From the NCBI GenBank assembly GCA_018663245.1, contig JABJEI010000014.1:3436-67435 (forward strand): 64,000 nucleotides of DNA, read 5' to 3'. A program made the translations under genes and the position numbers. The DNA is from a bacterium (GTDB lineage Bacteria > Babelota > Babeliae > Babelales > JABJEI01). Under the pieces are notes generated by a model. That model did not search any database. It saw only the letters and a program-made list of their open reading frames with translations, and was not told the origin of the DNA. Positions 46,147-61,337 of this stretch are shown here, piece after piece (position 1 is the stretch's first letter; each line of letters opens with the position of its first letter).

Positions 46147-46802
46147 TGATAATCGATTTTCAACTAATTTATCACGCGCTGCCGCAGCTTATGCGAGGCG
46201 CGCAAATAACAATCCTGATCGGCCTAATCTCATGCATCATCGGGTTGGCTCTGGGTACCATGTTTGGACTGGCCCTAGAATCAACCACGCGCACCCTAAA
46301 GTACCCAGTTTATCTGATTACAACCGTACTGCGTGGAACTCCGATGGTAATCCAGATAGTTTTTATGTACGCATTTTTGCCAATCGTAGGCATAAACTTG
46401 CCACCCTTGTGGACGGCGATTATCGCTGTTGGCATGAACAGTGCCGCATACATCAGTAGCATCGTGCGCTCAGGAATTAAATCGATTAGTTCAGGGCAGG
46501 TTGAAGCAGCAAAAGTACTGGGATTCAGTAGACTGCAAACTCTGTGGTATATAATTCTTCCACGCATCATGCGAGTTATGCTTCCACCTCTGGGTAACGA
46601 GTTGATAGTCTTGGTTAAAGACTCAAGCCTTGCCTCGTTCATCGGGGTAACTGAACTCTTTAAACAAGGGAGCATAATAACTTCCACAACCTACGATGCT
46701 CTGTCAGTGTACGCAGCAGTAGGTGCCGTTTACCTACTAATCACCGGCACACTAACCATGGGACTTACAGCCCTTGAAGTGAGGTTAAACCGACATGCTT
46801 AG
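46146..46802 (+). CDS. amino-acid ABC transporter permease
   Basis: The start ATG 46146 overlaps the SBP stop (TAATG); ATG 46134 is an alternative. Contains the EAA loop VEAAKVLGFSRLQTLWYIILP. Confidence 0.85.
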   Translation: MIIDFQLIYHALPQLMRGAQITILIGLISCIIGLALGTMFGLALESTTRTLKYPVYLITTVLRGTPMVIQIVFMYAFLPIVGINLPPLWTAIIAVGMNSAAYISSIVRSGIKSISSGQVEAAKVLGFSRLQTLWYIILPRIMRVMLPPLGNELIVLVKDSSLASFIGVTELFKQGSIITSTTYDALSVYAAVGAVYLLITGTLTMGLTALEVRLNRHA

Positions 46803-47505
46803 TTTAAAAAATATAACCAAGAAATTTGGCGACAAGCGAATTATTGATAATGTCAGCTTTGAGGTGCAGCCAGGAGAAGTAGCCGTATTACTTGGAGCCT
46901 CTGGCGTAGGCAAATCTACTATTCTTCGTCTTTTGAACAATCTTGAAACGCTTAATCAAGGCATTGTCACTTTTGAGGGTAAAAAACTTGATCTAGAAAG
47001 TATGCACACAAATCAAACAATCGGTATGATTTTTCAGCAATTCAATCTGTTTGAGCATTTATCAGTGCGTGAAAACGTTACAATTGCTATGCGTACAGTA
47101 CTTGGCAAATCAGCCAAGGCAGCCGATAAAATCGCCAATGATCTCCTAAAACGATACGACCTGACCGACAAAGTGGACAGCTCTCCTTCGGCTCTGTCTG
47201 GGGGGCAAAAACAACGGCTGAGCCTTGCTAGAGCGCTCGCTATGCGACCAAAAATTCTTTGTATGGATGAGCCAACTTCGGCACTTGACCCGGTACTAAC
47301 CGGCTACGTAGCTCAAGAGATAACCGACCTAGCAAAAGACGGTCTTGTAGTATTAATCGCAACACACGACATTAAACTGCTTGAGCAGCTTGCCTGCACT
47401 GTTCACCTGATGGATAAAGGCAAAATTGTTGAATCTGGAACCATGCACAGTATCACCTCCTCACCAAATAAACATCCCAAGATCAGTGCGTTTATCAAGG
47501 GGTAA
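46795..47505 (+). CDS. amino-acid ABC transporter ATP-binding protein
   Basis: Has Walker A GASGVGKST, the signature LSGGQKQRLSLARAL, and Walker B ILCMDEPTSALD. Confidence 0.93.
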   Translation: MLSLKNITKKFGDKRIIDNVSFEVQPGEVAVLLGASGVGKSTILRLLNNLETLNQGIVTFEGKKLDLESMHTNQTIGMIFQQFNLFEHLSVRENVTIAMRTVLGKSAKAADKIANDLLKRYDLTDKVDSSPSALSGGQKQRLSLARALAMRPKILCMDEPTSALDPVLTGYVAQEITDLAKDGLVVLIATHDIKLLEQLACTVHLMDKGKIVESGTMHSITSSPNKHPKISAFIKG

Positions 47506-47507
47506 TA

Positions 47508-47939
47508 ATGAAAAATAATTTACTTATCAAAGATGACATCGTCATTCCCGGCTACGAGCTTGAGATAACAACGAGTAGATCAAGTGGAGCGGGCGGCCAA
47601 CACGTAAACAAAACCGATACACGGGTAACCGTGAGGTGGAATGTACGAGACACAACCGTTTTGAATGATTCACAAAAAGAACAAATCAACAATAAACTTC
47701 AGGCTAAATTAACCAACGATGGTTACCTGATTGTTCACGATGGATCATCACGAAGCCAGCTACAAAACAAGCATAGCGCACTGGATCGACTTGCCGCTCA
47801 GGTTCGCAGAGGCCTTGCTTGCCAAAAAAAACGGATGAAAACTCGTATTCCAAAATCAGCAAAAGAATCTCGTTTGCGCTCCAAAGCACACCGCAGTAAC
47901 TTGAAAAAAATGCGTAGCAAAAACATCCAAGATGACTAA
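47508..47939 (+). CDS. arfB: alternative ribosome-rescue factor ArfB (peptidyl-tRNA hydrolase, GGQ domain)
   Basis: 143 aa with SRSSGAGGQHVNKTDTRVTVRW and a basic C-terminal tail (KKRMKTRIPKSAKESRLRSKAHRSNLKKMRSK). Confidence 0.85.
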   Translation: MKNNLLIKDDIVIPGYELEITTSRSSGAGGQHVNKTDTRVTVRWNVRDTTVLNDSQKEQINNKLQAKLTNDGYLIVHDGSSRSQLQNKHSALDRLAAQVRRGLACQKKRMKTRIPKSAKESRLRSKAHRSNLKKMRSKNIQDD

Positions 47940-48019
47940 AGAGTCTCGGCTAAGTTTTACCACAAAGCCAATGATTACAAAGATTATGACTAAAAAAGTG
48001 ACGCCAAAGAAGTAGCTGC

Positions 48020-48055
48020 AAAAAAATAGGGGCAAGATTTTTACACCTTGCCCCT
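48020..48055 (-). terminator. rho-independent terminator of coiled-coil paralog 1
   Basis: Minus strand AGGGGCAAG-gtgtaaaaat-CTTGCCCCT followed by ATTTTTTT. Confidence 0.7.
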
Positions 48056-48078
48056 AACGTTAAATTACTTCTTACTTA

Positions 48079-51000
48079 TTAAGATCCATCCTGTGCCACA
48101 GCCAACAAGGCCGATGGTAAAGTATTATCTTTTTTAAGCACACCTTGTAGTTCATTTAGAACTTTAGCTCGCTTGCCAGCCTCTGAGTCTGTTTCGACCT
48201 TATCAAGTGCCTTCTCATTCTCTGCACTCAACGTCTTGCCTTTTTTACTGAACAAGTTCTTGATCCAGTCAACAACAAAGCGAACACGTTCTTTGAACGG
48301 TTTTTTGACAATCTGGGCCTTACGCGCGTCAATCGCTACCTTAACCTCGTTAAGCCTTTTCTCGAGCTGCTTTACATCTTTGGCCGCATCCCTGAAGTCT
48401 GCACTTTTTTGTTCAAATTCTTCGGCCCGAGTCCCATATTTATTTTTATAAAGGCTTTCAACTTTATCTAAGCTTTTACCACAAGCCTCTGTTTGTAGAA
48501 CTTCAAGACGTTTTGCAAAGGTATCAACAAACGTAATATATTTGCTACCAGCAAAATGGTTATCATGATCAAACGATGGTACCGTGCCTTGATTAATCAA
48601 TGTCTCAAGAGCAGACCTGAACTTACCTAATTTTTCTTGATCGATACTTTTCAGCTCATAAGGCTTACCAGGAACTTTTTTCCCTACATCAAAGGCCACA
48701 AGCAGCTTAGGGTAGCGCTTTTCAGCTTTACTTACAAAATCCAAATCATTCGGCTCAACCTTACCGTTGGTTCCGTTAACTTCAAGACCTTTAACAGCGG
48801 TCAAAAGATCTCGTAAAACAACATCCGCATTTGCGAAAATATAAAAACCATCAACAACCTTCTTGTTGGTATACTCAGCATCAAATTTTTTGGTTAACTC
48901 AGTTACAGATACATCAGTAAACCCTAGCGTATCAAGAGCCTTAAGTGAGTTAACAATTTGAGACGAATTCTTTAGATCATGATCATTAAAGTTTTTGATA
49001 TATCGCTCAAGTTGGCGCATTTTTGCACGTGCTTTAGAAGCATCACGACGCAAGTTCTGTAAATCTTCCTTTGTATTCAAGTCGGATGTCTCTGATTTAA
49101 GCTTGTCTGCCTCATCACGTACCGCCTCCAGCTCCTCTGTAGCCGTTACAGCATCGCGAGTTGTAGGGTCAAGAGGTGCATCCTTATCTACGGCTTTGCC
49201 GCGACTAGCCCCTTTGTTCCTCAGCCAGCTCATCAACTTATCAAGTGGACCACCTTTTTGAGTAAATTTGGCGATATTGTTGCGCATAGACTCAAAAGAA
49301 TTTTGCACTATCTGCTTTACACTCTTAGCCTCTTTACCAGGATCAGTGTCAGAATTAGACTTAGAAACCTTGGCCTCAGTCATTTTTTTATCCAAAGCAT
49401 CAAGAAGCTTCAGAAATTCTTCTGTAGCCTTGTGCGTTACTTCACCTTTATCTAATTCAATAAACGCATCAAACTTTTTAGCTTCTTCACGCGTAATAAC
49501 ACCGTCAGTTTTTGCGTCAGACTTAAGCGCATCGATAACTTCGGGTAGAACCCTCATCAGCTTTTTGTTGTCAAGATGATATCGCCGTTCAATATCTCCT
49601 CGCTCTTGCACTCCAGAAACAGCTTCAAGCTTCTCTAACTTTTCGGCCGAAGCGGTATCATCGACTTTTTGTTGCTCCTTAACATCGCCGAATGCCTTCT
49701 CGATAACCGTACTGAGTTCTTTTTTATCAGCCTCAGTTAGAGTGGCTTCACGATTAGACTTCTTCAATAACTTTTGTATTTCTTCAACATCACCCTTAGA
49801 AATAGGTGAACGTTTTTTAAGTTCAAGTTGTTTTGCAATCGCATCTTGCACTGCTGTCAGCTGTTCACGCAATTCAGGTGTAAGACTCTTACCTTTTTGC
49901 GATCTATCAAAACTTGCTATGTCCGAATTCAATTCAGCTAACTGGCCATCAGAAACTCGAATGTTACGGTGCTCACGGACTTCGAGACCAAACAAATCTT
50001 CAACTGCTTCCAGCTTGCCGGGCTTAATTTTACGGGCATTATCCCAGGCCCAATTAAGATGATCTGTTAAAACCTCTTCATTAACCGCAAGCCTACCACT
50101 CGTATCTCGCGTCAATATCGACTTAGAGTCAACAGTTTTCATCGCAATAAGTTCTTGAATCTCGGTAATATGCGTCTCGTCACTACCCGGCGGATTCTTT
50201 GTATAAAACTCACCATCACTTGCATAATACGCTTCAAGACTTTCGCGAACCTCAGTAATTTTATCTTGAGGAAATGAACCCCATACCTTTTCTTCAAAGT
50301 CTTTGACTACATCAATCGTAATTCCACGCTCTCGTAAAGCATCAACTACCCGATATCGAGCATCAAATCCTTTTCGCATTTCTACAATACTACCCTTCTC
50401 CACATACTTCTTAGCATCTGAATCTAGATATTTATTCTTAAGCATTTCAGACTTAAGGTCTACCGAAACTGAATCTAATTTAGCTTGTGAAAAATTCGCA
50501 TTTTCTCTACCAAACAAGCTACCAAGCCTATCAGCAAATCTGCCTAACTTAGCTTTAAGCACAAATAAATTATCACGAATCTCGCTAAGCGCCTTACGGT
50601 ACTTTATCGACCTCTTATGCTTACTTGCATCTAAACTTTCTTTCAACTCGGTTAGTTTGTCCGACAATTTGCTTCTTAAGCTCAAAACTTGTTCTTTTAA
50701 TGTATTTGCCAACTCTTTGGCTGACGGAAATTGATCTTTATGCGAAGCTATATCTCTGAACGGCTTAGTTATTTTGTTAAGTATTTTGGCAGCCTTTGAA
50801 TTACCCGATTCGTTAAGATCGGCCTCTAGTTGCTGCTGAGCAACAGTTTTTGGCTCAAATTTTGCATCTTTAGAAAGCTCTACAACTTCCCCTGAATGCT
50901 CTTTGAGACTGTCATTAGGAGAAAAACCGGTATCATTTTGTGACATTTGCGCATCAATTATAGCTTGCGAAAAATTCTGCTGTATTTTCTCATTAATCGG

Positions 51001-52830
51001 ATCTTTTATAACCTCTTTTAACCATTTTGCAACCTTTTGCATTGCCTCCTCAGAAGGTCCGAGTGGACTTGGCTCTCCATTTATTAAATGGCTTTCATCT
51101 ATAAGACCGTATACTTCATCAATGTCATCATAATTCTCTTCAGACACATCAAAGCTATCATCCGCTTCCAAATGCTCTGTTTTTTTTAATTCTGCTTCAA
51201 GTTTATTAAGCGTAGACTGTTTAACTGGCTCGTGAGCGGGTTCACCTGGTGAAGCATGCTTCCTGTCCTTGAAACTCTCAATATCTACCTTAAGCTGCTC
51301 AGCTGCCTCTTTAAACGCCGATTTTTCTTCAGCTGTTTCGGACGCATCGCGCTCTTGCATAACCGTATCAATATTCTGTTTAAATCTATCTACCTCATCT
51401 AGAGTTAAAGGCACGGTTCCTTCTTCAAGACGAATCGTAGAAAGCAAATCTTTAACAAAAGTTCGCAAATCATTGGACTCAACTTCAGAACCTGCATCCT
51501 TCATTTCTGAAAGTATTTCACTGCGCAAACGTATATTAGAAGCGCCATCCATATCTTCCAAATTTTCTTGCAACTCTAATTCATTTACGTCTCTACGTAT
51601 GCTTTCAAGCGATTTATGTGAAACATCTTCGTTATATTCTGCTTCCTGCTTGCGTGATAACTTATCACGCCCTTCAAGAGCCTCAAATCGGGCTGAAATC
51701 AAGTCAAACTCTAACTGCTCAGTATCTGAATCAGATGGAGTTTGCAAATTTTCAAAGTTTTTTATTTCCTGCGATAGCTTCTCTAGCTTGTCTTGACTAG
51801 CTAACAAATCATTCTTTGTTGGATCATTTTTCGATTTCTCTAGGGTTTCCTTCAGTTCTCGAACATCAGCCTGTGAATCAGGTGATAATTTTGTAAAATT
51901 ATCTGACTTTATCAACTCATCAAATACTTTTACAAATGCCTTTGCTTCATCTTTACGATGTTCTATTACATGCTTTTTGGGCGGTTCATTTTTACTCAAC
52001 TCACTCAGTTTTTCATTCGCACTCTCCTTCAACTCCTCCAGTTCAGGATCAATATCAAACAAATCATCATTCAAAGAATCTGTTTCAGCCATAGCCTCAT
52101 GCAGCTCATTCATGGCCTCTTTGCTTAGAGCTTTTTTACCACGTAAATTATCTAAAGCATCACCAAAGTCCTTAAAGAACTTCTTAAGCGCATCTATAAA
52201 AGCAGCTGGCGCCTTCTTTAATTTCTCCCCAGTCCAGCTGGAAATACTCTTCAATGTCTCGCGTAATTTATTAAGAATCTTAAAAGGCTTTTTCTGAGCC
52301 TTTGTCATATTTTCATCAATAGGCTTAGGGTCCAATCCTATCTCTTTACCGTACTTCAACATATCGTCAATAAGCTTCTCACGCTTAAATTTTGTATCTT
52401 TATCTTGCAAACTATCTGTTAGCTCGCCTTCAACTTTTTCTAATGATGAAAGCTGTTTCTTAGCCTCGTTCAAGCCTTTGCTAGCATCTTCAAGACGTTT
52501 TTTGCCGATATCCGTATCTTTAACATCCTCAGCCTGCTTTAAGTCTTTCTTCGTTTGATCAAGATTATCTTTGTACGCCTCAAGATTTTGTTGTAGCTCT
52601 CTCAAGCGTTCTTGTTCTTGCTTATCTAAATCTTCTCGCTTTTCAAGCTTATCACGCTCAGCATCAAGCTTTTGCTCTTCCTCTGCTTGCTTTGCATACT
52701 CATCTTTTGCTTCTTCAAGCGTGTAGGTTTCTTCATCTACATGCACGGGTTCCGCGCCATCCATTGCATACAAAGTCTGACAGCCAAACAGGCCAGCAAA
52801 TAATAAACTTATAAATATGAGCTTTTTCAC
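48079..52830 (-). CDS. giant secreted coiled-coil protein (leader family paralog 1)
   Basis: 1583 aa from a GTG start. Leader is MKKLIFISLLFAGLFGCQTLYAMDGAEP (a possible lipobox LFGC). The rest is E/K/D/L-rich with no recognisable catalytic motif. Confidence 0.85.
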   Translation of the reverse strand: MKKLIFISLLFAGLFGCQTLYAMDGAEPVHVDEETYTLEEAKDEYAKQAEEEQKLDAERDKLEKREDLDKQEQERLRELQQNLEAYKDNLDQTKKDLKQAEDVKDTDIGKKRLEDASKGLNEAKKQLSSLEKVEGELTDSLQDKDTKFKREKLIDDMLKYGKEIGLDPKPIDENMTKAQKKPFKILNKLRETLKSISSWTGEKLKKAPAAFIDALKKFFKDFGDALDNLRGKKALSKEAMNELHEAMAETDSLNDDLFDIDPELEELKESANEKLSELSKNEPPKKHVIEHRKDEAKAFVKVFDELIKSDNFTKLSPDSQADVRELKETLEKSKNDPTKNDLLASQDKLEKLSQEIKNFENLQTPSDSDTEQLEFDLISARFEALEGRDKLSRKQEAEYNEDVSHKSLESIRRDVNELELQENLEDMDGASNIRLRSEILSEMKDAGSEVESNDLRTFVKDLLSTIRLEEGTVPLTLDEVDRFKQNIDTVMQERDASETAEEKSAFKEAAEQLKVDIESFKDRKHASPGEPAHEPVKQSTLNKLEAELKKTEHLEADDSFDVSEENYDDIDEVYGLIDESHLINGEPSPLGPSEEAMQKVAKWLKEVIKDPINEKIQQNFSQAIIDAQMSQNDTGFSPNDSLKEHSGEVVELSKDAKFEPKTVAQQQLEADLNESGNSKAAKILNKITKPFRDIASHKDQFPSAKELANTLKEQVLSLRSKLSDKLTELKESLDASKHKRSIKYRKALSEIRDNLFVLKAKLGRFADRLGSLFGRENANFSQAKLDSVSVDLKSEMLKNKYLDSDAKKYVEKGSIVEMRKGFDARYRVVDALRERGITIDVVKDFEEKVWGSFPQDKITEVRESLEAYYASDGEFYTKNPPGSDETHITEIQELIAMKTVDSKSILTRDTSGRLAVNEEVLTDHLNWAWDNARKIKPGKLEAVEDLFGLEVREHRNIRVSDGQLAELNSDIASFDRSQKGKSLTPELREQLTAVQDAIAKQLELKKRSPISKGDVEEIQKLLKKSNREATLTEADKKELSTVIEKAFGDVKEQQKVDDTASAEKLEKLEAVSGVQERGDIERRYHLDNKKLMRVLPEVIDALKSDAKTDGVITREEAKKFDAFIELDKGEVTHKATEEFLKLLDALDKKMTEAKVSKSNSDTDPGKEAKSVKQIVQNSFESMRNNIAKFTQKGGPLDKLMSWLRNKGASRGKAVDKDAPLDPTTRDAVTATEELEAVRDEADKLKSETSDLNTKEDLQNLRRDASKARAKMRQLERYIKNFNDHDLKNSSQIVNSLKALDTLGFTDVSVTELTKKFDAEYTNKKVVDGFYIFANADVVLRDLLTAVKGLEVNGTNGKVEPNDLDFVSKAEKRYPKLLVAFDVGKKVPGKPYELKSIDQEKLGKFRSALETLINQGTVPSFDHDNHFAGSKYITFVDTFAKRLEVLQTEACGKSLDKVESLYKNKYGTRAEEFEQKSADFRDAAKDVKQLEKRLNEVKVAIDARKAQIVKKPFKERVRFVVDWIKNLFSKKGKTLSAENEKALDKVETDSEAGKRAKVLNELQGVLKKDNTLPSALLAVAQDGS

Positions 52831-52877
52831 GATCTTTTCCTTGTATTACGTCACAATATTTTTATTCATATACTATA

Positions 52878-52907
52878 ATAATAGACTATTTGCAACTATT
52901 AAAACAA
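52878..52907 (-). promoter_or_regulatory. putative sigma70 promoter of paralog 1
   Basis: Minus strand TTGTTT-(18 nt)-TATTAT. The geometry and flanks are the same as upstream of paralogs 2, 3 and 4. Confidence 0.4.
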
Positions 52908-52941
52908 GGGTTTGCGTAAATTATTTATAAAAAATAGGCAC

Positions 52942-52967
52942 AAAAAATGGGGACCCGAAGGCCCCCG
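52942..52967 (-). terminator. rho-independent terminator of paralog 2
   Basis: Minus strand GGGGGCC-TTCG-GGTCCCC followed by ATTTTTTG (UUCG tetraloop). Confidence 0.8.
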
Positions 52968-52994
52968 ATTGAATTCATTGATCAAATACTTGTT

Positions 52995-53960
52995 TTAGAG
53001 ACCACCGTCTCCGCCACCACCACCGTGGCCAGAAGTACTATTCGCATCGTTTACATGAAGAGCGTTATACAAATCTGTAAGTGATATATTCCTCATTTTT
53101 TTATTAAGCGAACTTATGTAATCGTTAAGTGCTTTAGAAATCTCATCTGCATTGATAAGCTTTGGAGTTGAGTCATCGATAAGCTTTTGAATTGAGTCAT
53201 CGCAGATCTCTATGAGCCTGGAAACGTCGGGACCCATTGCTGTGCGGATCTTTTTAAGTCGCTTCTCTTCCTTTTCAACCTTTTTTGATCGCTTCTTTTC
53301 CTTTGATTTTTCTATTTTTTCATCTAACTTTTCAGCAAGCTCTACTATTTTAGCTTTTAAATCAGGGCCTTTTATGTTTTTCACTAAATCAAAAAGATCA
53401 ATAAATGGCTTAATAAAAGTTCTTTCAATAAAGTCTCTAAACTGACGATTACTGTGAATTTTACCATCATTAGAAACCTCAGCGACTTTTCGATCGATAG
53501 AATTCATTGCTTCATTGCCCCTGCTTATCAGCTCCGCCCTTGCTGTATCTGCTGCTTTATCAGAATCACCAACAGCTTCTGTCCCCGAAAGAGCTTCCAC
53601 TGCTTTATCCAGCTTTGTAACTATCGAATCTGCTTCATTCATAGACTTATCTGCTTGATCTAAAAGAGTTTGGTGATCGTCGACTGAATTCTTAGACTGG
53701 TCAAGAAGGTTCTTAGCTGATTTAATCTGTTCTTGATGCTCACGAATCGCCTTGTCAAGCAACACTAACCGCTTTGAATCATTATCCATGTTCGCATCAT
53801 TACGTTCACTTATCAGTTCTTTTTGTGTAGCTTCTTCATCGGCAATCCTGGACTCAACACTAGTTTCTGTAACCACCGGATCTCCAGCCTCCATGGCAAA
53901 CAATGCCCACGAACCAAGCAGTCCCACAACAAGCAGGCTTATTAATAACTGTTTCTTCAT
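52995..53960 (-). CDS. secreted coiled-coil protein (leader family paralog 2), C-terminal GGGGGDGGL
   Basis: Trimmed from TTG 53987 to ATG 53960 (MKKQLLISLLVVGLLGSWALFAMEAGDP), the start shared with the other paralogs. Confidence 0.85.
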   Translation of the reverse strand: MKKQLLISLLVVGLLGSWALFAMEAGDPVVTETSVESRIADEEATQKELISERNDANMDNDSKRLVLLDKAIREHQEQIKSAKNLLDQSKNSVDDHQTLLDQADKSMNEADSIVTKLDKAVEALSGTEAVGDSDKAADTARAELISRGNEAMNSIDRKVAEVSNDGKIHSNRQFRDFIERTFIKPFIDLFDLVKNIKGPDLKAKIVELAEKLDEKIEKSKEKKRSKKVEKEEKRLKKIRTAMGPDVSRLIEICDDSIQKLIDDSTPKLINADEISKALNDYISSLNKKMRNISLTDLYNALHVNDANSTSGHGGGGGDGGL

Positions 53961-54007
53961 CTTTTTATCCCTTTGCGATGAATACAATATTTTTATCTCT
54001 TACAGTA

Positions 54008-54037
54008 ATTATGAACTATTTGAAACTACTCCTGCAA
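54008..54037 (-). promoter_or_regulatory. putative sigma70 promoter of paralog 2
   Basis: Minus strand TTGCAG-(18 nt)-CATAAT, followed by the conserved 5'UTR ..TGTAAGAGATAAAAATATTGTATTCATCGCAAAGGGATAAAAAG-ATG. Confidence 0.45.
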
Positions 54038-54142
54038 TGGTTAGCGTAAAAGTCGGTACATAAAATATGACTCTTTGTAGCAAATATTTACAAAGTGTAA
54101 CAACAAAAAATAACGCAACCTCTATTGCTATCCAATGAACTG

Positions 54143-54181
54143 CTGAAAGACTGGATCCCCGTTCAAAGCCGGGGATGACAA
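54143..54181 (+). repeat. REP-like palindromic repeat (ATCCCCG-N8-CGGGGAT), 39-nt unit
   Basis: ctgaaagactggATCCCCGttcaaagcCGGGGATgacaa is identical over 39 nt to 61145..61183. Confidence 0.8.
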
Positions 54182-54252
54182 AAGATTAATTTCTTCATAA
54201 CTGGCGACAACTAAAACTGTCATTCTTATTTTGTATCCAAGGTATAAGCAAC

Positions 54253-54280
54253 AAAAAAACGAGGACCCGAAGGCCCCCGC
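54253..54280 (-). terminator. rho-independent terminator of paralog 3
   Basis: Minus strand CGGGGGCC-TTCG-GGTCCTCG followed by TTTTTTTG. Confidence 0.8.
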
Positions 54281-54307
54281 TATAAATCCATTGATCAAAT
54301 TATAAAA

Positions 54308-56350
54308 TTAAAGGCCACCGTCTCCGCCGCCACCACCAGATTGCCCGGTAGTTACACTAACGTTGAATAAATTTTTTGTAAGACGTGGATGCTTGTCAGC
54401 CAAGACTCGTACAGCATTACTAATATTCGCTGTGTAATCACGCAGTTTGGCTTTGTTGACCTCAACTTTTTGGTCAGCACCATCACCAACAACAGTTACA
54501 ATATCATTGGCAACAAGTACATTGTATGCCTTGTTTTTTTCTAATGAAAGACGAGACAAGTCCATACCTTCCAATCGATTGACGGCATTGTAACGCTCCT
54601 CAGCTGTGATTCCTGGCCAACGGGCTGTGATTTTGCGACCATCAACAGAGAAGTCGACACCTAAGTCTCTCAACGCATTTGTAACAGGACTAGTCTCTCG
54701 ATAGCTCTTCTTTGCGATTCTACGCTCGTACGTTTCTGGCATAGCTTTTTTGGACAAAAACTTTTTGACTGTTTTTTCTTGACGCTGCTTAGTCGTAAGA
54801 GGGTCATCCATGAAGACGGCATCATAAATGTCCTTAAACGATAAACTTTTGTTAATTCTCTTACCAACTGCGTCGCTGTAATCATTAATAGATTGATGGA
54901 TATCAGCAATAGATGAACCGACATCATCATGCGTTTTAGCCCCACTATAAAGATCCTCAGTAAGTTCTTGTAATCGATCAGACTCTCTCTTTACGAATGA
55001 GACCTCGTGATCACTCATTGCTTTACGGATCTTCTCTAACCGCTTTCTTGTTCGGTCTGACAACACTTGCTCTTTTACGTTGCCTTCTGATTTTTGATCA
55101 AGGTCTTTAAGAATCAATCTCTTTTTATCTTGAAGAGTATCATTTAAACCGGTACCAAACTTCTTTTCACCAGCCGTATCACCTATAAAACTGTAAACTT
55201 GGGCAAACGGCTCAACAAAGATCCCCTTGAAGAACTTATTAAGCTTACGACTTGTATTGTCAGTTGCCTTCTGAACTTTGCTAATATCCTGATCAAAATC
55301 TTTTACAAATTGCTCGTTGTTTGACAATACTTTACCAATGGCTTCTTTGCGCTCTGCAGAAGTAGAGGCGTCATTCAATTCCATTTTGAGCTCATCGATT
55401 TCAACTGGCAACATATCTGCCTTGGCAACTTCAACATCGCCCAGCTCACGACCACTCGGATCACGAAACTCAATTATTTGGTTAAGAACCTCTAGCCCAT
55501 TCTTACGACTTTTCAGAAGCTCTCGCACCTCAAACAACTTATCCAAAACCTTATCAATACTACCCTTGGCACTAAGCGTTTCTATATTTTTTTTGGTCTC
55601 TGCATCTGAAGAATGTCCTGGAGAATCATCCTCAACAATACTATTAAATTCCTCAATAACTCTGTCCTTCATGTCCTCAAAAGCGTTTGCTGCCTCTTCA
55701 GGAGTAGCATGTTCTGGAACATCGACAACTAAATACCGAGGTAAACCTAAATCCCAAAAAGCATTCAATAACGACACGCCGGTCTTAGTCGGCTTATGAA
55801 GCTGCTCGAAAATATCTTTTACCGCCGGGCCATGCTCGTCGGTATCAAACTGCTCCTCGGCCTCTAACAGGTCTGGATCTTGAGATAACTCACCAGTATC
55901 GCTATCTTGATCGTCATTGTCACCAGAATTGTCCTCAATAGCTGAAAGCTTTTTCTCTACCTCTTGTATAATTTGCTTAACAGTCTCAAAGGAGTTCCCA
56001 ATGCTACCTAACTTCATTACAGCTTGATTATGGGCGCTATTTCTCTCTATCCTACTTTTATCCATATCACGAGCTGCATCCACAAGCTTCTCAGCATCTG
56101 AAAGCCTTTTTGCATTCAGCTTTTCAACTTTCTCCATTTCTTCTAACTGTTTTTGCTCATCAGCATCCAGCTGCCCATCCCGAGCCTCTTTAGCCTCGAG
56201 TTTAGCCTTCGCATCTTCCAATTTTTGCTGATTCTCTTCTTGTGCCTTGTACTCAGTCTCGATAGAGTTCTCACCCTCAATAGCGAACAATGCCCACGAA
56301 CCAAACAATCCCACAACCAGCAGGCTTATTAATAACTGTTTCTTCATCAT
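54308..56350 (-). CDS. secreted coiled-coil protein (leader family paralog 3), C-terminal GGGGGDGGL
   Basis: 680 aa beginning M-MKKQLLISLLVVGLFGSWALFAIEGENS. The second ATG at 56347 aligns with the paralog starts. Confidence 0.88.
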   Translation of the reverse strand: MMKKQLLISLLVVGLFGSWALFAIEGENSIETEYKAQEENQQKLEDAKAKLEAKEARDGQLDADEQKQLEEMEKVEKLNAKRLSDAEKLVDAARDMDKSRIERNSAHNQAVMKLGSIGNSFETVKQIIQEVEKKLSAIEDNSGDNDDQDSDTGELSQDPDLLEAEEQFDTDEHGPAVKDIFEQLHKPTKTGVSLLNAFWDLGLPRYLVVDVPEHATPEEAANAFEDMKDRVIEEFNSIVEDDSPGHSSDAETKKNIETLSAKGSIDKVLDKLFEVRELLKSRKNGLEVLNQIIEFRDPSGRELGDVEVAKADMLPVEIDELKMELNDASTSAERKEAIGKVLSNNEQFVKDFDQDISKVQKATDNTSRKLNKFFKGIFVEPFAQVYSFIGDTAGEKKFGTGLNDTLQDKKRLILKDLDQKSEGNVKEQVLSDRTRKRLEKIRKAMSDHEVSFVKRESDRLQELTEDLYSGAKTHDDVGSSIADIHQSINDYSDAVGKRINKSLSFKDIYDAVFMDDPLTTKQRQEKTVKKFLSKKAMPETYERRIAKKSYRETSPVTNALRDLGVDFSVDGRKITARWPGITAEERYNAVNRLEGMDLSRLSLEKNKAYNVLVANDIVTVVGDGADQKVEVNKAKLRDYTANISNAVRVLADKHPRLTKNLFNVSVTTGQSGGGGGDGGL

Positions 56351-56393
56351 CTTATCCCTTGCGATGAATATAATATTTTTATCTCTTACAACA

Positions 56394-56423
56394 ATTATGA
56401 ACTATTTGAAAAAGACAAAACAA
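56394..56423 (-). promoter_or_regulatory. putative sigma70 promoter of paralog 3
   Basis: Minus strand TTGTTT-(18 nt)-CATAAT plus the conserved 5'UTR cassette. Confidence 0.4.
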
Positions 56424-56456
56424 GAGTTTGTGTAGGTATAAGAAAAAATTAGACAC

Positions 56457-56485
56457 AAAAAAAGCGGGAGCTCGAAGGCCCCCGC
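56457..56485 (-). terminator. rho-independent terminator of paralog 4
   Basis: Minus strand GCGGGGGC-cttcga-GCTCCCGC followed by TTTTTTTG. Confidence 0.8.
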
Positions 56486-56511
56486 TTAAGTACGTTTATC
56501 AAATGCTAGAA

Positions 56512-57591
56512 TCAGAGATTTTTGTGCCCACCGTTGCCACCTTGATGTTGTTTTTGCCATTGATCATTATCGTAATCATAAGTTGTGTCATAATCATCTT
56601 GTTCTATTTCTTTTTCGACCAATTGGTCAGTAAAGTATATGGTTGCATCGTCGGGAAATGCAGGTAGATTTTCATGATCCTCCTCATCTGCATCAAAACG
56701 TTCTCTAACCTCATCTGCATACTTTATTTTAGCTTCGTCCGCCGCATCACCTGCCGCTCTTTTCTGCTCTGGTGCATCACGAATCTCTTTAATAAACGCT
56801 CCAGTTTTACCGAATTTACTAAACAACTTACCAATTGTCTTTGCATAAAAACTCTTAACGTTATTTTTAATCGTTTCTAAAATAAAACGAATTTTTGTTA
56901 TATATTTTCTCTCTTCTTTCTTAAGATCAGCTTTTGTAGCCTTAGGATCCTCAGCAATATTTTTTAAGTTCTTTTCAAACGTATTATTAGTTTTATTTAC
57001 ACTATCCACGATCGTTTTAGCTTCAGGGCTTTTTAAATCACTAGTATCAATCGGACTAAATATATTCTTTGAATCATCCGAATCTATTCCTGAATCATCA
57101 TCAGAATCCTTGAATAGATGTTCATCAATTAAATCCAAAACTTTTTGAGACAGAGGGGTTGATTCCTCATCGATGTCATCAGAGGTCTCTATATCATCAA
57201 GCTTTTCTAGCAATTCATTTCTAGTGTCCTCACTTGTATCAAGTTTACCTTCAACAGCTTCAATATCGTCGGCACTTTTTGAGGTCTTAGCCTTTTCAAG
57301 TGACGTATTAGCCTGTTCTAATTCTTTAGAATACGTCAAAACATGCTCTTGTAATGCTTCGTACTGCTCTTGCTGCTCAGCAGTGAGATTTTTTTCGTCT
57401 CTAAGTCTATCTCGCTCATCTTCCAAAGCTTCAAGCGATTTTTTCTGCTCCTTATACTCGTTCTGCGCATCCTCTAAACGAGTCTCAAGCTGCTCCGGCG
57501 ACTCTGCTGGCCCTTCACCTTCCATGGCAAATACTGCCCATGAACCAAGTAACCCGATAGCCAACAGGCCTATTAATAACTGCTTCTTCAT
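56512..57591 (-). CDS. secreted acidic coiled-coil protein (leader family paralog 4)
   Basis: 359 aa beginning MKKQLLIGLLAIGLLGSWAVFAMEGEGP. Has a very acidic body and the C-terminus ..QGGNGGHKNL. Confidence 0.88.
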   Translation of the reverse strand: MKKQLLIGLLAIGLLGSWAVFAMEGEGPAESPEQLETRLEDAQNEYKEQKKSLEALEDERDRLRDEKNLTAEQQEQYEALQEHVLTYSKELEQANTSLEKAKTSKSADDIEAVEGKLDTSEDTRNELLEKLDDIETSDDIDEESTPLSQKVLDLIDEHLFKDSDDDSGIDSDDSKNIFSPIDTSDLKSPEAKTIVDSVNKTNNTFEKNLKNIAEDPKATKADLKKEERKYITKIRFILETIKNNVKSFYAKTIGKLFSKFGKTGAFIKEIRDAPEQKRAAGDAADEAKIKYADEVRERFDADEEDHENLPAFPDDATIYFTDQLVEKEIEQDDYDTTYDYDNDQWQKQHQGGNGGHKNL

Positions 57592-57637
57592 CTTTTATCC
57601 TTTTGCGATGAATACACTATTTTTATTACTTATAGCA

Positions 57638-57667
57638 ATTATAGACTATTTAAAACAGTTGCTGCAA
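57638..57667 (-). promoter_or_regulatory. putative sigma70 promoter of paralog 4
   Basis: Minus strand TTGCAG-(18 nt)-TATAAT plus the conserved 5'UTR cassette. Confidence 0.45.
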
Positions 57668-57702
57668 TGGTCCACATAAATATAGGAAAAAAATTAAGCA
57701 CT

Positions 57703-57729
57703 AAAAAAGCGGGGTCTTTAAGCCCCGCC
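57703..57729 (-). terminator. rho-independent terminator of paralog 5
   Basis: Minus strand GGCGGGGC-ttaaaga-CCCCGC followed by TTTTTTAG. Confidence 0.75.
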
Positions 57730-57754
57730 TTAATTCGTTGACCAAGCTATCAAC

Positions 57755-58180
57755 CTAGAGACTTTTATCACCACTATTGGATGGTCTAGAACCATTCGAT
57801 TTATGTGATCGTTTGGCAATAGCTTCATTGGCTAACTTAATCTCATCAGAATAGTCCGGTGTCAAAATTTTATTTCTGATATCCGAAGGAAGTTTCTTGA
57901 TAGCACGTCCAACTTCTGTAAGCTCTACTACAAACTTCTTTAAGCCTTTTATAGCATCATCCCCTAAAGCAGAACCCTGGTCCTCAATACTCTCAAGTGC
58001 ACTTCTGACATTACGCCCAAAGTCATTAAAAGCTTGGGCAACAGCAGAGGTCGTAACTTGCTTATTATTTTGCTGCGTCTTGTGCTTAGTCCCAACGGCG
58101 CTCTGGCCTTCAATGGCAAACATCGCTCCTGTAACAAGTAATCCCGAAACAAACAGGCTGGTTAAAAGTAATTTCTTCAT
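57755..58180 (-). CDS. small secreted protein (leader family paralog 5)
   Basis: 141 aa beginning MKKLLLTSLFVSGLLVTGAMFAIEGQSA. Its body aligns with the C-terminal module of paralog 7 (A.NDFGR....A..S..D.G..L). Only 18 nt separate it from paralog 6, so the two are probably co-transcribed. Confidence 0.85.
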   Translation of the reverse strand: MKKLLLTSLFVSGLLVTGAMFAIEGQSAVGTKHKTQQNNKQVTTSAVAQAFNDFGRNVRSALESIEDQGSALGDDAIKGLKKFVVELTEVGRAIKKLPSDIRNKILTPDYSDEIKLANEAIAKRSHKSNGSRPSNSGDKSL

Positions 58181-58198
58181 TTTTTATCCTTTTTTAGA

Positions 58199-59266
58199 TC
58201 AACTCAAAATAGAGCCAACCCTTCTTTTTAAACCATCGAGCATATTAAAAACTTTACCAACGCGTCTTCCGTATAAATTCTCATTAGTTAAAATCGTGTT
58301 GCTATTTACATATCTTGACAACTTTTCTCTAGAGTTTTTTAATATCGGATCTGCTTTATCAAGATATGAATTACGACTTTCGCCGGTAATTCGTTGCCTC
58401 ATAGCATCAAAAACATACGGCTCAGATTTTTGAAGAAGGTCGTAAACTTTAACTACTCCCTTATGTAATTTATTCATCCGTTGAGTCTCGTCTACAGTCC
58501 GCTCACTATCTCTCATTTTATCAAGCCTTAACCATTCGGTTTCTGCACTATCTAGAATATCCATCTGAGAAAGCCATTCTCGCTTTACACTCTCAAGGCG
58601 TGGATCCTTGGCCTCTCCTGACTCAACTGGATCGAACAAATCTGGTAGCGGTTTCCACATTTGTCGTTTACCAGAATCAAAAAGCGTTCCCTCTAATCTC
58701 TTTTTAATATCATCAACTTTTTGATCAGAAAGTTTGTCATCCGTAGATTCCGAATCACTTTCCATGTCTCCAAGCTTCTTCTCTACCTTAGCTACGATCT
58801 CTTTGACGCTATCAAAGGATTTTTGGGCCTGATTTAGAGAATTCTCTGCTCTCCCGCTAAATCTTGCTATGTCCGCATGCAGCATATGATCGTTGGTATT
58901 AGTAACAAAACTACTTCCGTCGGAACTATGAATGGCCATTGCTTTTTCTAAAGCACTTTTAGCCTCTTCAACCTTTAAAAGCTCTTTCAAATTCTTCTTA
59001 GCATCTACAAGCCTCTCTGCATTCTTACGTGCTACTTCTCTCATTTTGTCTAACTGTAATTCCTCGCCTACACTCAACTCTCGCCCTTTTTTGGCCAATT
59101 CAGCCTGTTTAGCCTCAAGCACATCCCTAGCACTTTCCAACTTTTTCTGATTCTCTCTCTGCGTACTGTACTCAGACTCATAAGCGCTCTCGCCTTCCAT
59201 GGCAAACATTGCCACTGTACCCATTAATCCTGCCACAAGCAGGCTTATTAATAATCGTTTCTTCAT
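58199..59266 (-). CDS. secreted coiled-coil protein (leader family paralog 6)
   Basis: Trimmed from TTG 59293 to ATG 59266 (MKKRLLISLLVAGLMGTVAMFAMEGESA). Its N-terminal roughly 170-aa module aligns with paralog 3. Confidence 0.85.
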   Translation of the reverse strand: MKKRLLISLLVAGLMGTVAMFAMEGESAYESEYSTQRENQKKLESARDVLEAKQAELAKKGRELSVGEELQLDKMREVARKNAERLVDAKKNLKELLKVEEAKSALEKAMAIHSSDGSSFVTNTNDHMLHADIARFSGRAENSLNQAQKSFDSVKEIVAKVEKKLGDMESDSESTDDKLSDQKVDDIKKRLEGTLFDSGKRQMWKPLPDLFDPVESGEAKDPRLESVKREWLSQMDILDSAETEWLRLDKMRDSERTVDETQRMNKLHKGVVKVYDLLQKSEPYVFDAMRQRITGESRNSYLDKADPILKNSREKLSRYVNSNTILTNENLYGRRVGKVFNMLDGLKRRVGSILS

Positions 59267-59377
59267 CTTTTTATCCTTTTGCGATAAGTCCAAAATTTGC
59301 GTAATTACGCAATAACTTCATAATATTTAAATAATCAAAAATAAGTTCATGCATAGATCTAAAAAAAATTAGGTAAA

Positions 59378-59403
59378 TAAAAAACGGGGCCCAAAGGACC
59401 CCG
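59378..59403 (-). terminator. rho-independent terminator of paralog 7
   Basis: Minus strand CGGGGTCC-ttt-GGGCCCCG followed by TTTTTTATTT. Confidence 0.75.
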
Positions 59404-59419
59404 CCTATTACGCACTCAA

Positions 59420-60304
59420 TTAAATACTATTGTTTCCAGTATTGGATGATCCAGCATTAGGCCTGTTAGGAGCTCCCTCATCATCGCCAAACAACGCCTT
59501 GTAATTTGAATCTGCATCCGGATTTCCATCAAACGAAATTTTCGCTTTGATTGAAGGAAGATTTTCAATAACTGTTTTCAAGCTTTTCCAGCGCTCATTA
59601 ATAGCATTCTTAGCCTTTTCACTCAAAACAGTGCCTCGATCCTGCATACTATCAAAGGCATTTTTAAGATCACGTCCAAAGTCATTAAGGGCATTAACGA
59701 TTTCCCCTATTTTTGCTTTTGTATCGCTCACAATAGACTTCAATTTTTTATCTAAATTTTCGAATATGTCCAAAACTTTTCCAATATGCTCTCCATAGAG
59801 ATCTTTACTGGTGTATTCTGGCTCCCTGGAAAGCTCCTTCCTGAGATCGGCTATTTCCTTCTTAGAAAGTTCGTCATCCGTAGATTCCAAATCACTTTCC
59901 ATACTTGTAAGAGCCTCATCCGCTTTAAGAGCAGTATTTGCCCTATCTAAAGCTTCTCGTCCCTCAGAAGTATTACCTTCACTTTTAGCTGTCTCAATAT
60001 CACGACTAGCTTTATCTGTTTGAACTTTACTATCAGCTAAAGATTTTTTAGTCGCTTCTAGCTCCTCGCGCGCCTCTTTCCGCTCTTCTTCTGTTAAGCT
60101 CTCATCTTTCTCTCGCTGTTCAAGTTCATCTCGCTGCGACTCAAGCTCAGCTTGCTTTGCTTCCTGATTATCAAGTTCAGTTTTTGCATCTTCAACAGAT
60201 GTTTCAAATTCTGCCGACGTTGGAGCTTCACCTTCCATGGCAAACATCGAACCTGTACCCATTAATCCTGCAAATAGCAGGCTAGTTAAAAGTAATTTCT
60301 TCAT
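59420..60304 (-). CDS. secreted coiled-coil protein (leader family paralog 7)
   Basis: Trimmed from GTG 60337 to ATG 60304 (MKKLLLTSLLFAGLMGTGSMFAMEGEAP). Confidence 0.85.
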   Translation of the reverse strand: MKKLLLTSLLFAGLMGTGSMFAMEGEAPTSAEFETSVEDAKTELDNQEAKQAELESQRDELEQREKDESLTEEERKEAREELEATKKSLADSKVQTDKASRDIETAKSEGNTSEGREALDRANTALKADEALTSMESDLESTDDELSKKEIADLRKELSREPEYTSKDLYGEHIGKVLDIFENLDKKLKSIVSDTKAKIGEIVNALNDFGRDLKNAFDSMQDRGTVLSEKAKNAINERWKSLKTVIENLPSIKAKISFDGNPDADSNYKALFGDDEGAPNRPNAGSSNTGNNSI

Positions 60305-60351
60305 CTTTTTATCCTTTTTTGATGAATATAAATTCACAACTACACAATTTA

Positions 60352-60381
60352 ATTATACACAAAACGCAAAACATTTCACAA
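60352..60381 (-). promoter_or_regulatory. putative extended -10 promoter of paralog 7
   Basis: Minus strand TTGTGA-(18 nt, ending TGTG)-TATAAT, about 48 nt upstream of ATG 60304. Confidence 0.45.
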
Positions 60382-60559
60382 GGGTTGGGGTATAGTTTTT
60401 TATGAAGCAAAAAATAGAGCTACATAAAGTTGAAAAACAACAGCCACATTGACCCATCGTAAACATTGTCCATAAAAAAATGAAAAAAGATTTAAAGCGA
60501 ATATTAACCGTATTGCCAAAAGAAAATAGCTCAGCCCATTTTGAGCTAAAAAAAAGGAC

Positions 60560-60588
60560 TTGACTCTCACCATGCGAACTGCTAAAAT
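60560..60588 (+). promoter_or_regulatory. strong sigma70-like promoter with no downstream ORF
   Basis: TTGACT-(17 nt)-TAAAAT, preceded by an A-tract (GCTAAAAAAAAAGGA). Confidence 0.55.
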
Positions 60589-60594
60589 CCCGTG

Positions 60595-60715
60595 CAGACT
60601 ATCCTGATAAGGAACCAGTAGAAAATTTACAAGGGTCCCTAAGCGAGCAATACCTATAAAGTATTGTTCACCCCCCTAGCCCTTCAACTTGTCCTAAGTT
60701 GAAGGGACTTCTTTA
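60595..60715 (+). ncRNA. candidate small RNA of unknown class (about 120 nt)
   Basis: Bounded by the promoter at 60560..60588 and a hairpin CCCTTCAACTT-gtcct-AAGTTGAAGGG (60680..60706) followed by ACTTCTTT. No ATG-initiated ORF. Contains an internal hairpin CAATAC-ctataaa-GTATTG. Confidence 0.35.
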
Positions 60716-61020
60716 ATCCGTCTTCGCTCTTTTAGCTTCGCCGAGACAGAGGGGTATACCCCTTAACAATCCCATATAATTTTGAAACTTAATTTCTTAT
60801 ATATCTTCTAACAACAATTCTTATTTTTCTTGAAAACAAATCTTTATCTAACTTTTTTTTCATTAGTGGCTTGATACAAAAACCCTTTTTTTAGCAAGGG
60901 GTTGCTTGTCCAACCCCTTGCGGACAAGGACACCAAGGAGGGCCTTGGAACCCTACGCAAAAAACGTTGCAACCAAGCCCCTGCCCGGCCAAGCTTTACG
61001 CGAAGCCTTTGGCGAAGAAG

Positions 61021-61052
61021 GGTCATCCTCGTGAATACGGGGATCCAGGACT
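61021..61052 (-). repeat. divergent inverted copy of the REP-like unit
   Basis: Minus strand GTCCTGGATCCCCGTattcacgAGGATGACCC compares with GACTGGATCCCCGTtcaaagccGGGGATGACAA. It faces the copy at 61145 about 90 bp away. Confidence 0.5.
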
Positions 61053-61144
61053 ATAAGTTTTATCCGTTAAATACAATTCCACAGTTCATCTGAAAAAGTA
61101 CAATCATCAAGCAACCGACATACCCCATTCCTCAAAATGAGTTT

Positions 61145-61183
61145 CTGAAAGACTGGATCCCCGTTCAAAGCCGGGGATGACAA
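61145..61183 (+). repeat. REP-like palindromic repeat (ATCCCCG-N8-CGGGGAT), 39-nt unit
   Basis: Identical over 39 nt to 54143..54181. Confidence 0.8.
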
Positions 61184-61337
61184 GGAAAAAAACTTTTATC
61201 AGCCTTTACAGCGAAGAAGGGCCACGGAAAAGCCGAAAGCATGAACGAATAAAAAAAAGAGAAGCTTGTTTGTAAGAAAGGTTTTTGTTGGAAGAATTAG
61301 AAGTATTAGGGGCAATTAAGCCCCTAATAAAAATGAC

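Follow-up and report, generated by a model that had tools for sequence, protein, structure and literature searches.

Dependentiae are a widespread phylum of protist parasites, of which only a handful are in culture and whose manipulation of their hosts is largely uncharted. Every member in culture is an obligate intracellular parasite of protists and has a large, Sec-dependent secretome of ORFans (PMC6561590, PMC4378268). In Chromulinavorax, signal peptides were found on 44% of coding sequences and were enriched in ORFans (PMC6561590), while in Babela, 37 tandem duplications and species-specific, expanded families of secreted proteins were described, with a type II secretion system (T2SS) as the sole secretion system detected (PMC4378268). 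Here, we analysed a 64-kb stretch of contig JABJEI010000014.1 (the window, to which all positions refer) and describe in it a tandem array of seven genes, labelled g1 to g7, whose products begin with a common leader. We consider it rather likely that this array is a species-restricted, tandemly duplicated family of exported proteins that acts at the host interface in the manner of effectors.

The array resembles the secreted ORFan expansions of Babela massiliensis (PMC4378268) and Chromulinavorax destructans (PMC6561590) in phylum, in the signal peptide on homologue-free proteins, in tandem duplication, in its presumed role in host interaction and in having Sec and a T2SS as the only visible route. 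In contrast, the Babela and Chromulinavorax families show no sequence relationship to the array proteins, whose bodies are acidic and coiled-coil or all-alpha, as opposed to the ankyrin, Ulp1-like and beta-propeller proteins of the cultured Dependentiae. Unlike those families, the array family is restricted to a single species-level lineage, for which metagenomes are the only source. It is new in having no homologues; tandem expansion of signal-peptide ORFans, as a kind of event, has already been described for Dependentiae.

An earlier note on this DNA, made from the sequence alone, had likened the array to the SVM effectors of phytoplasmas. The parallel holds as an analogy of architecture, because both are multi-copy families of host-dependent bacteria in which a conserved signal peptide precedes divergent, mosaic mature regions. 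It does not extend to homology, as none of the seven proteins matched PF12113 (SVM_signal) at E <= 1. Furthermore, phytoplasmas are wall-less Mollicutes, in which Sec export amounts to secretion, whereas the array bacterium has an outer membrane still to be crossed, and SVM genes lie in regions resembling mobile units, whereas the array occupies a fixed chromosomal slot with conserved gene order.

The open reading frame (ORF) listing gave seven consecutive minus-strand ORFs between 48079 and 60337 (Table 1), and the tandem arrangement and common leader reported in the earlier note were both borne out. Lengths are counted from the common MKK start; in g3, two adjacent ATGs are present, at 56350 and 56347. 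A hidden Markov model (HMM) of the 28-amino acid (aa) leader scored 52-63 bits on g1-g7, whereas no other segment between stops in a six-frame translation of the window exceeded 11 bits, so that the leader is common to these genes far beyond chance. In other respects the description required correction. The leaders had not been listed in the order of the coordinates, and MKKLIF...YAMDG belongs to the 1583-aa gene at 48079-52830. To call the leader almost invariant overstated its conservation, since pairwise identity is 36-79% (mean 60%) and only M1, K2, K3, L9, G13, L14 and A22 are invariant. The bodies, described as hypervariable, are recognisable as diverged paralogs, with about 22-39% identity (23-39% over 150-640 aa by BLASTP). 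They share modules in a mosaic fashion: g3 and g6 in their N-terminal parts, g2 and g3 in their C-terminal parts and GGGGGDGGL tail, and g5 with the C-terminal part of g7. All members have in common a coiled-coil module at the N-terminus, about 100 aa in length, and in five of the seven proteins the C-terminus is a tail rich in G, S and N whose last residue is Leu or Ile (GGGGGDGGL twice, GGNGGHKNL, SNSGDKSL and NTGNNSI).

The family was found almost nowhere else. A word-indexed search with g3 returned only g3 itself. An exhaustive HMMER search of 1.84 billion cluster representatives, using a profile of the leader and about the first 70 mature residues, returned seven proteins at E <= 0.001, six of which were the clusters of the window genes themselves. 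The leader pattern had 598 matches in 185,579 GTDB species-representative genomes, none of which was confirmed as a relative, and the family profiles found nothing beyond faint leader-only matches in 91 other Dependentiae loci. Clustered at 90%, the seven proteins fall into clusters of 2-16 members, all from metagenomes or metagenome-assembled genomes (MAGs). Contigs that carry the whole array, with its genes in identical order, numbered at least 10 and derived from ENA and JGI assemblies as well as three NCBI MAGs; one further contig comes from a Saanich Inlet water-column metagenome (SAMN05224518). The MAGs GCA_018699675.1, GCA_018658215.1 and GCA_018649155.1 belong to this species. The expectation that the family would be absent from free-living bacteria was thus supported in the searches run, in which it was confined to its own species plus one doubtful match. 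This match, P0060 (locus L011, 4766-5377, on a contig of ENA ERZ25072999; E 8.5e-4), is a 203-aa protein with a similar leader, MKKRLVFTLLVAVFVGSVPLYAIETEE, and an acidic helical body. It was rejected as a family member: it is encoded by a single gene on an unrelated contig, among genes for aromatic-amino-acid and purine biosynthesis (IMP dehydrogenase), and a signal peptide and an acidic stretch are all that it has in common with the family.

Signal-peptide features of the leader were judged by rules (charge, Kyte-Doolittle windows and -1/-3 residues) rather than by a trained predictor. By these rules, the leader has the parts of a Sec signal peptide that the earlier note had recognised, namely a basic n-region, a hydrophobic core and small residues at candidate -1/-3 sites. 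All seven start with MKK and have a net charge of +2 or +3 in the first 5 residues; the best 12-residue window of the h-region has a mean Kyte-Doolittle value of 2.28-2.84 and spans residues 4/5 to 15/16. Ala22, invariant in the seven, is followed by [MI][ED]G, giving a candidate signal peptidase I (SPase I) site, [LVM][FY]A, after residue 22, with L or V at -3 in g1-g4. No further transmembrane segment was found beyond the leader in g1-g7 (no 19-residue window above 1.6 Kyte-Doolittle), and the leaders of g2-g7 contain no Cys that could form a lipobox. The sequence AAGGA lies 7-8 nt before Met1, nothing resembling a ribosome-binding site (RBS) is found ahead of codon 23, and this codon specifies Ile (ATT) in g3 and g5; the leader is therefore translated. 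Sec export of the array proteins is well supported by these features.

The earlier note had treated [FY]A[MI][ED]G as a motif of the family. We observed that unrelated leaders in ORFs of related bacteria end in NCME, NGME, QAMD, YGME or HAME, resembling the FAMEGE and YAMDG of the array. We therefore screened 822 ORFs from 91 further Dependentiae loci (L012-L103; 915 kb) by a single fixed heuristic that recognises signal-like N-termini; 80 of these loci had been fetched with the M23 alignment, and the test set consisted of Dependentiae only. Among 379 signal-like ORFs, which form 172 BLAST families, Met stood just before the first charged residue after the hydrophobic core in 44, a 6.4-fold excess over the background of 1.8%. 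The charged residue was Asp or Glu in 40 of these 44, and the residue before the Met was A, G, C, S or T in 39 of the 40, matching the -1 rule of SPase I. The junction occurred in 24 of the 172 independent families, where about 2 were expected (p 4e-17). These Met residues were rejected as true start codons, as an RBS-like motif was found before 22 of the 40 leader ATGs and before a single one of the 40 junction Met codons. We are confident that a small-Met-acidic junction is enriched in Dependentiae signal peptides, and because it recurs in 24 of 172 unrelated families, [FY]A[MI][ED]G is one instance of a habit of the phylum and not a family signature. Met is rare at position +1 of bacterial signal peptides according to classical statistics, and no description of the small-Met-acidic junction was found in the literature searched. 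The C-terminal G/S/N-rich tails were not seen in the other loci as a general Dependentiae signal.

It is conceivable, if unlikely, that the junction, which in generalised form reads hydrophobic-[Y/F/x]-[A/G/C] | Met-[Glu/Asp], is a functional export code of the phylum. Host-directed proteins delivered by Sec would lose their initiator Met, and selection might restore a Met-acidic neo-N-terminus; the processed protein would then resemble an ordinary, N-degron-resistant cytosolic protein of eukaryotes and be stable in the host cytosol, or the junction might mark a subset of proteins for a second secretion step. According to two reports, the N-terminal residue of the processed anthrax toxin proteins LF and EF sets their potency in the host cytosol via the N-end rule (PMC2518864, PMC3755998).

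The mature parts are rich in E, D, K, L and S and poor in Cys and Trp, and they are acidic, with net charges down to -48, g5 (+4) being the only exception. The full proteins are Cys-poor but not Cys-free, as had been claimed, since g1 has Cys17 and Cys1450 and g2 has one Cys. The heptad-like character attributed to them is real but patchy: by the contrast of a/d positions in 28-aa windows, it covers 15-47% of residues, compared with 1-4% in shuffled sequences. An amphipathic helix of the form ...G+V.D.F..L.K.LKS... recurs in the array proteins. AlphaFold2 models of g3 (7-row alignment) and of the C-terminal 824 aa of g1 (single sequence) consist almost entirely of helices and acidic disordered linkers, at low confidence (mean predicted local distance difference test scores of 45.8 and 46.5, respectively). 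The low-confidence g3 model had no Foldseek match in the PDB at E <= 0.001 (best 2.4).

Searches of all seven proteins against Pfam, NCBIfam, PHROGs and PADLOC gave nothing above cut-off and only sub-threshold coiled-coil matches, the best Pfam and NCBIfam scores being 10-23 bits against cut-offs of 23-1000. The view that the bodies belong to no recognisable family was upheld, as no profile search reached a characterised family, including S-layer, OmpH/Skp and apolipoprotein-like proteins. We discarded sub-threshold matches to SMC/Rad50, JetC, tape measure and spectrin profiles as coiled-coil noise, and a match to MG_279/280 that reached 23 bits against a cut-off of 125. Matches of the family profile to PDB sequences were also judged too weak and coiled-coil-like, namely PACSIN F-BAR (E 0.008) and, as the best, the N-terminal SNARE motif of SNAP-25 (E 0.005, 20 bits), which lies in a low-complexity coiled coil and is a lead only. 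With the Inc proteins of Chlamydia and the SNARE mimics of Legionella, the array proteins have in common that they are helical, heptad-rich proteins of an intracellular parasite; in contrast to Inc proteins, they lack a bilobed transmembrane hairpin, and their delivery would be by Sec and not by a type III or type IV secretion system. Substrates of the RTX/type I secretion class carry several tandem GGxGxDxUx nonapeptides and no N-terminal signal peptide. We rejected this class for the array, in which one imperfect G-rich tail, GGGGGDGGL, is found only in g2 and g3 and an N-terminal signal peptide is present.

Besides the array, the window holds an rRNA operon, a tRNA cluster, rplKAJL and rpoBC. 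The best matches of RpoC were 68-72% identical, and every named one was from Candidatus Dependentiae, Babeliales or Babeliaceae; in a cluster search, L7/L12 and L11 had no relatives at 90% or more outside the species. Judged from these sequences, this uncultured marine bacterium is an isolated, Babeliales-like lineage within the Dependentiae (TM6). Orthologues of the M23 peptidase gene next to the array were found in 12 Dependentiae/TM6 MAGs and only in such MAGs. In seven of the eight MAG loci that were long enough, the order is M23, a membrane protein of ~200 aa, 0-2 variable ORFs and an amino-acid ABC operon, with L021 rearranged. The two landmarks are 13.8 kb apart in the array species, the space being filled by the array and arfB (window 46134-62633, compared with L012-L023). 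Since the M23-ABC gap in the relatives is only 0.6-3.4 kb, the array is a lineage-specific expansion at a variable spot. One relative (L016) has two unrelated secreted ORFans between the M23 and ABC genes. In the array species, the ~200-aa membrane protein is missing from this interval, and in the 1-kb gap between g7 and the M23 gene (60338-61337) there is no ORF, nor did tblastn detect any remnant of the family there.

Other Dependentiae loci contain arrays with common leaders of their own, for example four genes encoding 436-534 aa (L019, 829-6773) and four encoding 118-132 aa (L020, 3174-4649). Leader-sharing tandem arrays appear to be a general habit of Dependentiae. We also noted further, unrelated paralog arrays at L017 (15852-17327 and 17560-20667) and in L062, L073, L078 and L081, with leaders such as MNIYYKPLFLATLCFSLPLNCME and MKKWFVFHVLLCIAGISQAMD.

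Conservation among the array genes, read from an alignment of -170 to +240 of each gene, begins upstream of the leader, with a -35-like TTG box and, ~17-18 nt on, a TATAAT, CATAAT or TATTAT -10 box. The 5' untranslated region (5'UTR) ends with TTCATCGCAAAAGGATAAAAAG immediately before the ATG. Terminators consisting of a G+C-rich hairpin and a T-run follow g7, g5, g4, g3, g2 and g1 (Table 1). The 18-nt interval between g6 and g5 contains an RBS and neither promoter nor terminator, so that these two genes probably form one operon. On this basis, the array would probably comprise six transcription units, with g5 riding on the g6 transcript. The array genes share their strand with the rRNA and rpoBC operons, and GC skew is uniformly negative across the window; this strand, together with the putative promoters and terminators of their own, is compatible with high expression.

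Among the repeat families, D4 comprises the 3' end coding for GGGGGDGGL together with the terminator, and D1-D3 comprise the 5'UTR and leader. A comparable arrangement has been described in the Staphylococcus aureus lpl cluster, a tandem set of exported host-interaction paralogs in which conserved segments span the 3' end of a gene, the intergenic stretch and the 5' end of the following gene (Tsuru and Kobayashi 2008, PMC2568036). The lpl genes encode lipoproteins of a known Pfam family, have a central conserved recombination region and vary in copy number between strains, whereas six of the seven array genes lack a lipobox, there is no central conserved block, and every assembly seen has the genes in the same number and order. 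At identical residues, the same codon was used in 57% of cases in leader pairs and 46% in bodies, compared with 35% expected from codon usage. On this basis, we rejected recent gene conversion as the main cause of leader conservation; the copies are old, and the leader peptide is held by selection. The longer spacer between g2 and g3 (347 nt) is due to the insertion of a 48-nt palindromic element (Table 1). The two copies of this element in the window, the second of which lies in the gap between g7 and the M23 gene, agree at 94% of the 48 nt and match fully over 39 nt; the element has a G+C stem of 7 bp (ATCCCCG-8 nt-CGGGGAT). Among 113 loci fetched, it was restricted to those of its own species, and it resembles a small repeat of the REP or MITE type.

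Table 1. Coordinates of the array genes and associated elements in the window
Feature	Position	Strand	Description
g1	48079-52830	minus	1583 aa, GTG start; largest paralog; leader MKKLIFISLLFAGLFGCQTLYAMDGAEP; only member with a lipobox-like L-F-G-C (Cys17)
g2	52995-53960	minus	321 aa; leader ends SWALFAMEAGDP; C-terminal tail HGGGGGDGGL
g3	54308-56347	minus	679 aa (680 from ATG at 56350); leader ends SWALFAIEGENS; C-terminal tail SGGGGGDGGL
g4	56512-57591	minus	359 aa; leader ends SWAVFAMEGEGP; tail GGNGGHKNL
g5	57755-58180	minus	141 aa; smallest paralog; 18 nt downstream of g6; body matches C-terminal part of g7
g6	58199-59266	minus	355 aa; leader ends GTVAMFAMEGESA; N-terminal 180 aa 39% identical to g3
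g7	59420-60304	minus	294 aa; leader ends GTGSMFAMEGEAP; tail NTGNNSI
Putative promoter/5'UTR module of g7	60305-60384	minus	TTGTGA-18-TATAAT, then TTCATCAAAAAAGGATAAAAAG before ATG
Homologous module of g6	~59267-59346		
Homologous module of g4	~57592-57671		
Homologous module of g3	~56348-56427		
Homologous module of g2	~53961-54040		
Homologous module of g1	~52831-52910		
Putative intrinsic terminator after g7	59382-59406	minus	
Equivalent terminator, g5	57688-57726		hairpin/T-run; approximate, from repeat family D5
Equivalent terminator, g4	56462-56487		hairpin/T-run
Equivalent terminator, g3	54258-54281		hairpin/T-run
Equivalent hairpin/T-run terminator after g2	52949-52966		
Equivalent hairpin/T-run terminator after g1	48027-48056		
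48-nt palindromic repeat	54134-54181	none	between g3 terminator and g2 promoter; second copy at 61136-61183

We aligned 21 contigs of the same species to the window. The array (11.2 kb) had 54 segregating sites, a Watterson's theta of 1.57e-3 and a ratio of non-synonymous to synonymous sites (N:S) of 38:16; the flanking housekeeping genes (8.9 kb) had 6 segregating sites, a theta of 0.25e-3 and an N:S of 2:4. The array is thus ~6-fold more polymorphic than its flanks (Poisson p 7e-28), in a sample of single nucleotide polymorphisms that is biased in that the contigs were retrieved by exact protein match to g4 or tryptophanyl-tRNA synthetase (TrpRS), both therefore protein-invariant by construction, and in which metagenome consensus sequences under-report diversity. 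The N:S contrast between array and housekeeping genes was not significant (Fisher p 0.09). Variation was concentrated in g1-g3 and g6, and g1 was the most polymorphic (24 non-synonymous and 11 synonymous sites). Two clusters of changes were noted in g1. At 50719-50774 (g1 residues 686-704), one contig (L002, ERZ27250210) has 15 clustered substitutions and a 9-nt insertion that yields a 1586-aa allele, and at 48322-48376 another (L001) has six changes; these clusters represent either local recombination or indel variants or assembly mixtures of strains. The gap between g7 and the M23 gene had 8 segregating sites among the same-species contigs, the highest density in the region.

The earlier note had proposed a lineage-specific effector or surface-coat system. 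As a class this is reasonable, given that the bacterium belongs to the Dependentiae. We favour a host-interface role, in which export is read from sequence features and both destination and host target are conjectural. Apart from g5, each gene has the same front end, made up of a putative promoter, a 5'UTR containing a strong ribosome-binding site (AAGGA) and the signal peptide, and each unit is closed by a putative terminator of its own. The leader would direct the protein to the Sec translocon, and SPase I would cut between Ala22 and Met23 (or Ile23), leaving a mature N-terminus of Met/Ile-Glu/Asp-Gly. The proteins would then leave the periplasm, presumably by a T2SS or in vesicles, and act at the interface between parasite and host; alternatively, they might stay on the cell surface. 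Outside the cell, contacts made by coiled coils and amphipathic helices would probably attach them to host structures, and the paralogs would diversify by duplication, module shuffling and fast amino-acid change.

Several points weigh against this proposal. The cleavage site is a rule-based guess: SPase I most probably cuts between Ala22 and Met/Ile23, but Met at -3 in g5-g7 is atypical for this site, and a second (-3,-1) site (SWA, TVA, TGA or TGS) follows residue 19 in g2-g7. We prefer the 22/23 site because, in the other Dependentiae, the residue ahead of the junction Met is small in 39 of 40 cases. The 64-kb window contains no T2SS gene, the low-confidence models offer no fold-based clue to function, and the sampling bias and non-significant N:S contrast described above limit what can be drawn from polymorphism. 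Finally, given the lipobox-like L-F-G-C at its residues 14-17, g1 may be lipid-modified and not soluble. In the lipobox [LVI][ASTVI][GAS]-C, a Phe at -2 would be non-canonical, but the broad classical pattern of PROSITE PS00013 allows it.

We regard as rather doubtful the possibility that the proteins remain with the bacterium as an envelope or surface coat, located either in the periplasm or at the outer surface. In such a coat, g1 would be lipid-anchored via Cys17 and the smaller paralogs would bind g1 or each other by coiled coils, forming a fibrillar or hydrophilic layer on the extracellular infectious stage for host attachment or protection. The L-F-G-C of g1 alone, behind a positive n-region, would suit an anchor, and the N-terminal module common to all members could mediate hetero-oligomers; promoters and terminators of their own, a strong RBS and the strand of rRNA and rpoBC are typical of abundant structural proteins, and Sec alone takes a protein no further than the periplasm. 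However, the proteins resemble neither S-layer, OmpH/Skp and Lpp proteins nor any other envelope family, they were found to have no beta-barrel, no anchor motif and no sorting domain at the C-terminus, six of the seven proteins lack a lipobox, and strong acidity with disordered linkers would be unusual in a packed coat. The high non-synonymous polymorphism of the array fits effectors and a coat alike.

Two further explanations appear highly improbable. In the Vsp, Vlp and Vsa systems of Mycoplasma, a conserved 5' region and signal sequence precede variable bodies, and one or few genes are expressed, with switching by recombination. A phase- or antigenic-variation locus of this type would account for the similar architecture of the array, in which conserved promoter, 5'UTR and leader are joined in tandem to divergent mature parts. 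Yet every unit has a complete promoter and terminator, the window contains no inverted gene copies, long inverted repeats or recombinase, and the bodies have no in-frame tandem repeats (three short 2-copy repeats in 13.5 kb); moreover, lipoboxes are absent from six of the seven, and order and orientation are identical in at least 10 assemblies from different samples. It is equally hard to credit that the proteins are not exported at all, Met23 being the true start of a cytoplasmic coiled-coil protein (SMC/JetC-like or phage tape-measure-like) and the leader untranslated. A Met lies exactly at the junction in five of the seven, and the sub-threshold matches include SMC/Rad50, JetC and tape-measure profiles. 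These matches fall far below curated cut-offs, in low-complexity coiled-coil stretches, and the AAGGA before Met1, the Ile at residue 23 of g3 and g5, the position of RBS-like motifs in other Dependentiae and the conservation of the leader at the protein level, with the profile of a signal peptide, all argue for translation from Met1.

The earlier note had also connected the array with Sel1 and EamA genes. EamA-family transporter genes are present at 20512-21426, 22462-23388 and 41833-42762 and a Sel1-repeat gene at 21543-22385, none of which adjoins the array; they are 5-26 kb away with housekeeping genes between, and we saw no link. Three more small paralog arrays in the window, without a Pfam match, lie at 30786-32239 (plus strand), 33389-36182 (plus strand) and 36321-38807 (minus strand). 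They encode two ~230-aa proteins with an MKKLILVA leader and a common NGSxICxxCR motif, three ~300-aa proteins with an N-terminal NHITIALIA helix and the C-terminal sequence IGLKTDAQLQSEF, and four proteins of 130-190 aa that start with MNVFKISRVLLLSSLVAAPCT (lipobox-like) and have further hydrophobic segments. The rpoB ORF (7524-11849, minus strand, 1441 aa) aligns from residue 143 with residue 81 of PDB chains of E. coli-type beta subunits, so that either the protein is extended by about 60 residues at its N-terminus or the ORF has been started too far upstream.

If the small-Met-acidic junction marks those secretome proteins that are directed to the host, or determines protein stability there, effector candidates could be picked by a simple sequence rule from hundreds of genomes of uncultured Dependentiae; if it reflects no more than a signal peptidase preference, it would still improve the prediction of cleavage sites in this phylum. 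The putative promoters, leaders and terminators of the array are defined and thus directly usable in reporter or expression studies, and public multi-omic data from Saanich Inlet, comprising metatranscriptomes and metaproteomes under BioProject PRJNA247822 and its companions, exist in which its expression and processing could be checked. The array offers a clean, well-delimited example of fast-evolving, species-specific proteins that Dependentiae appear to export.

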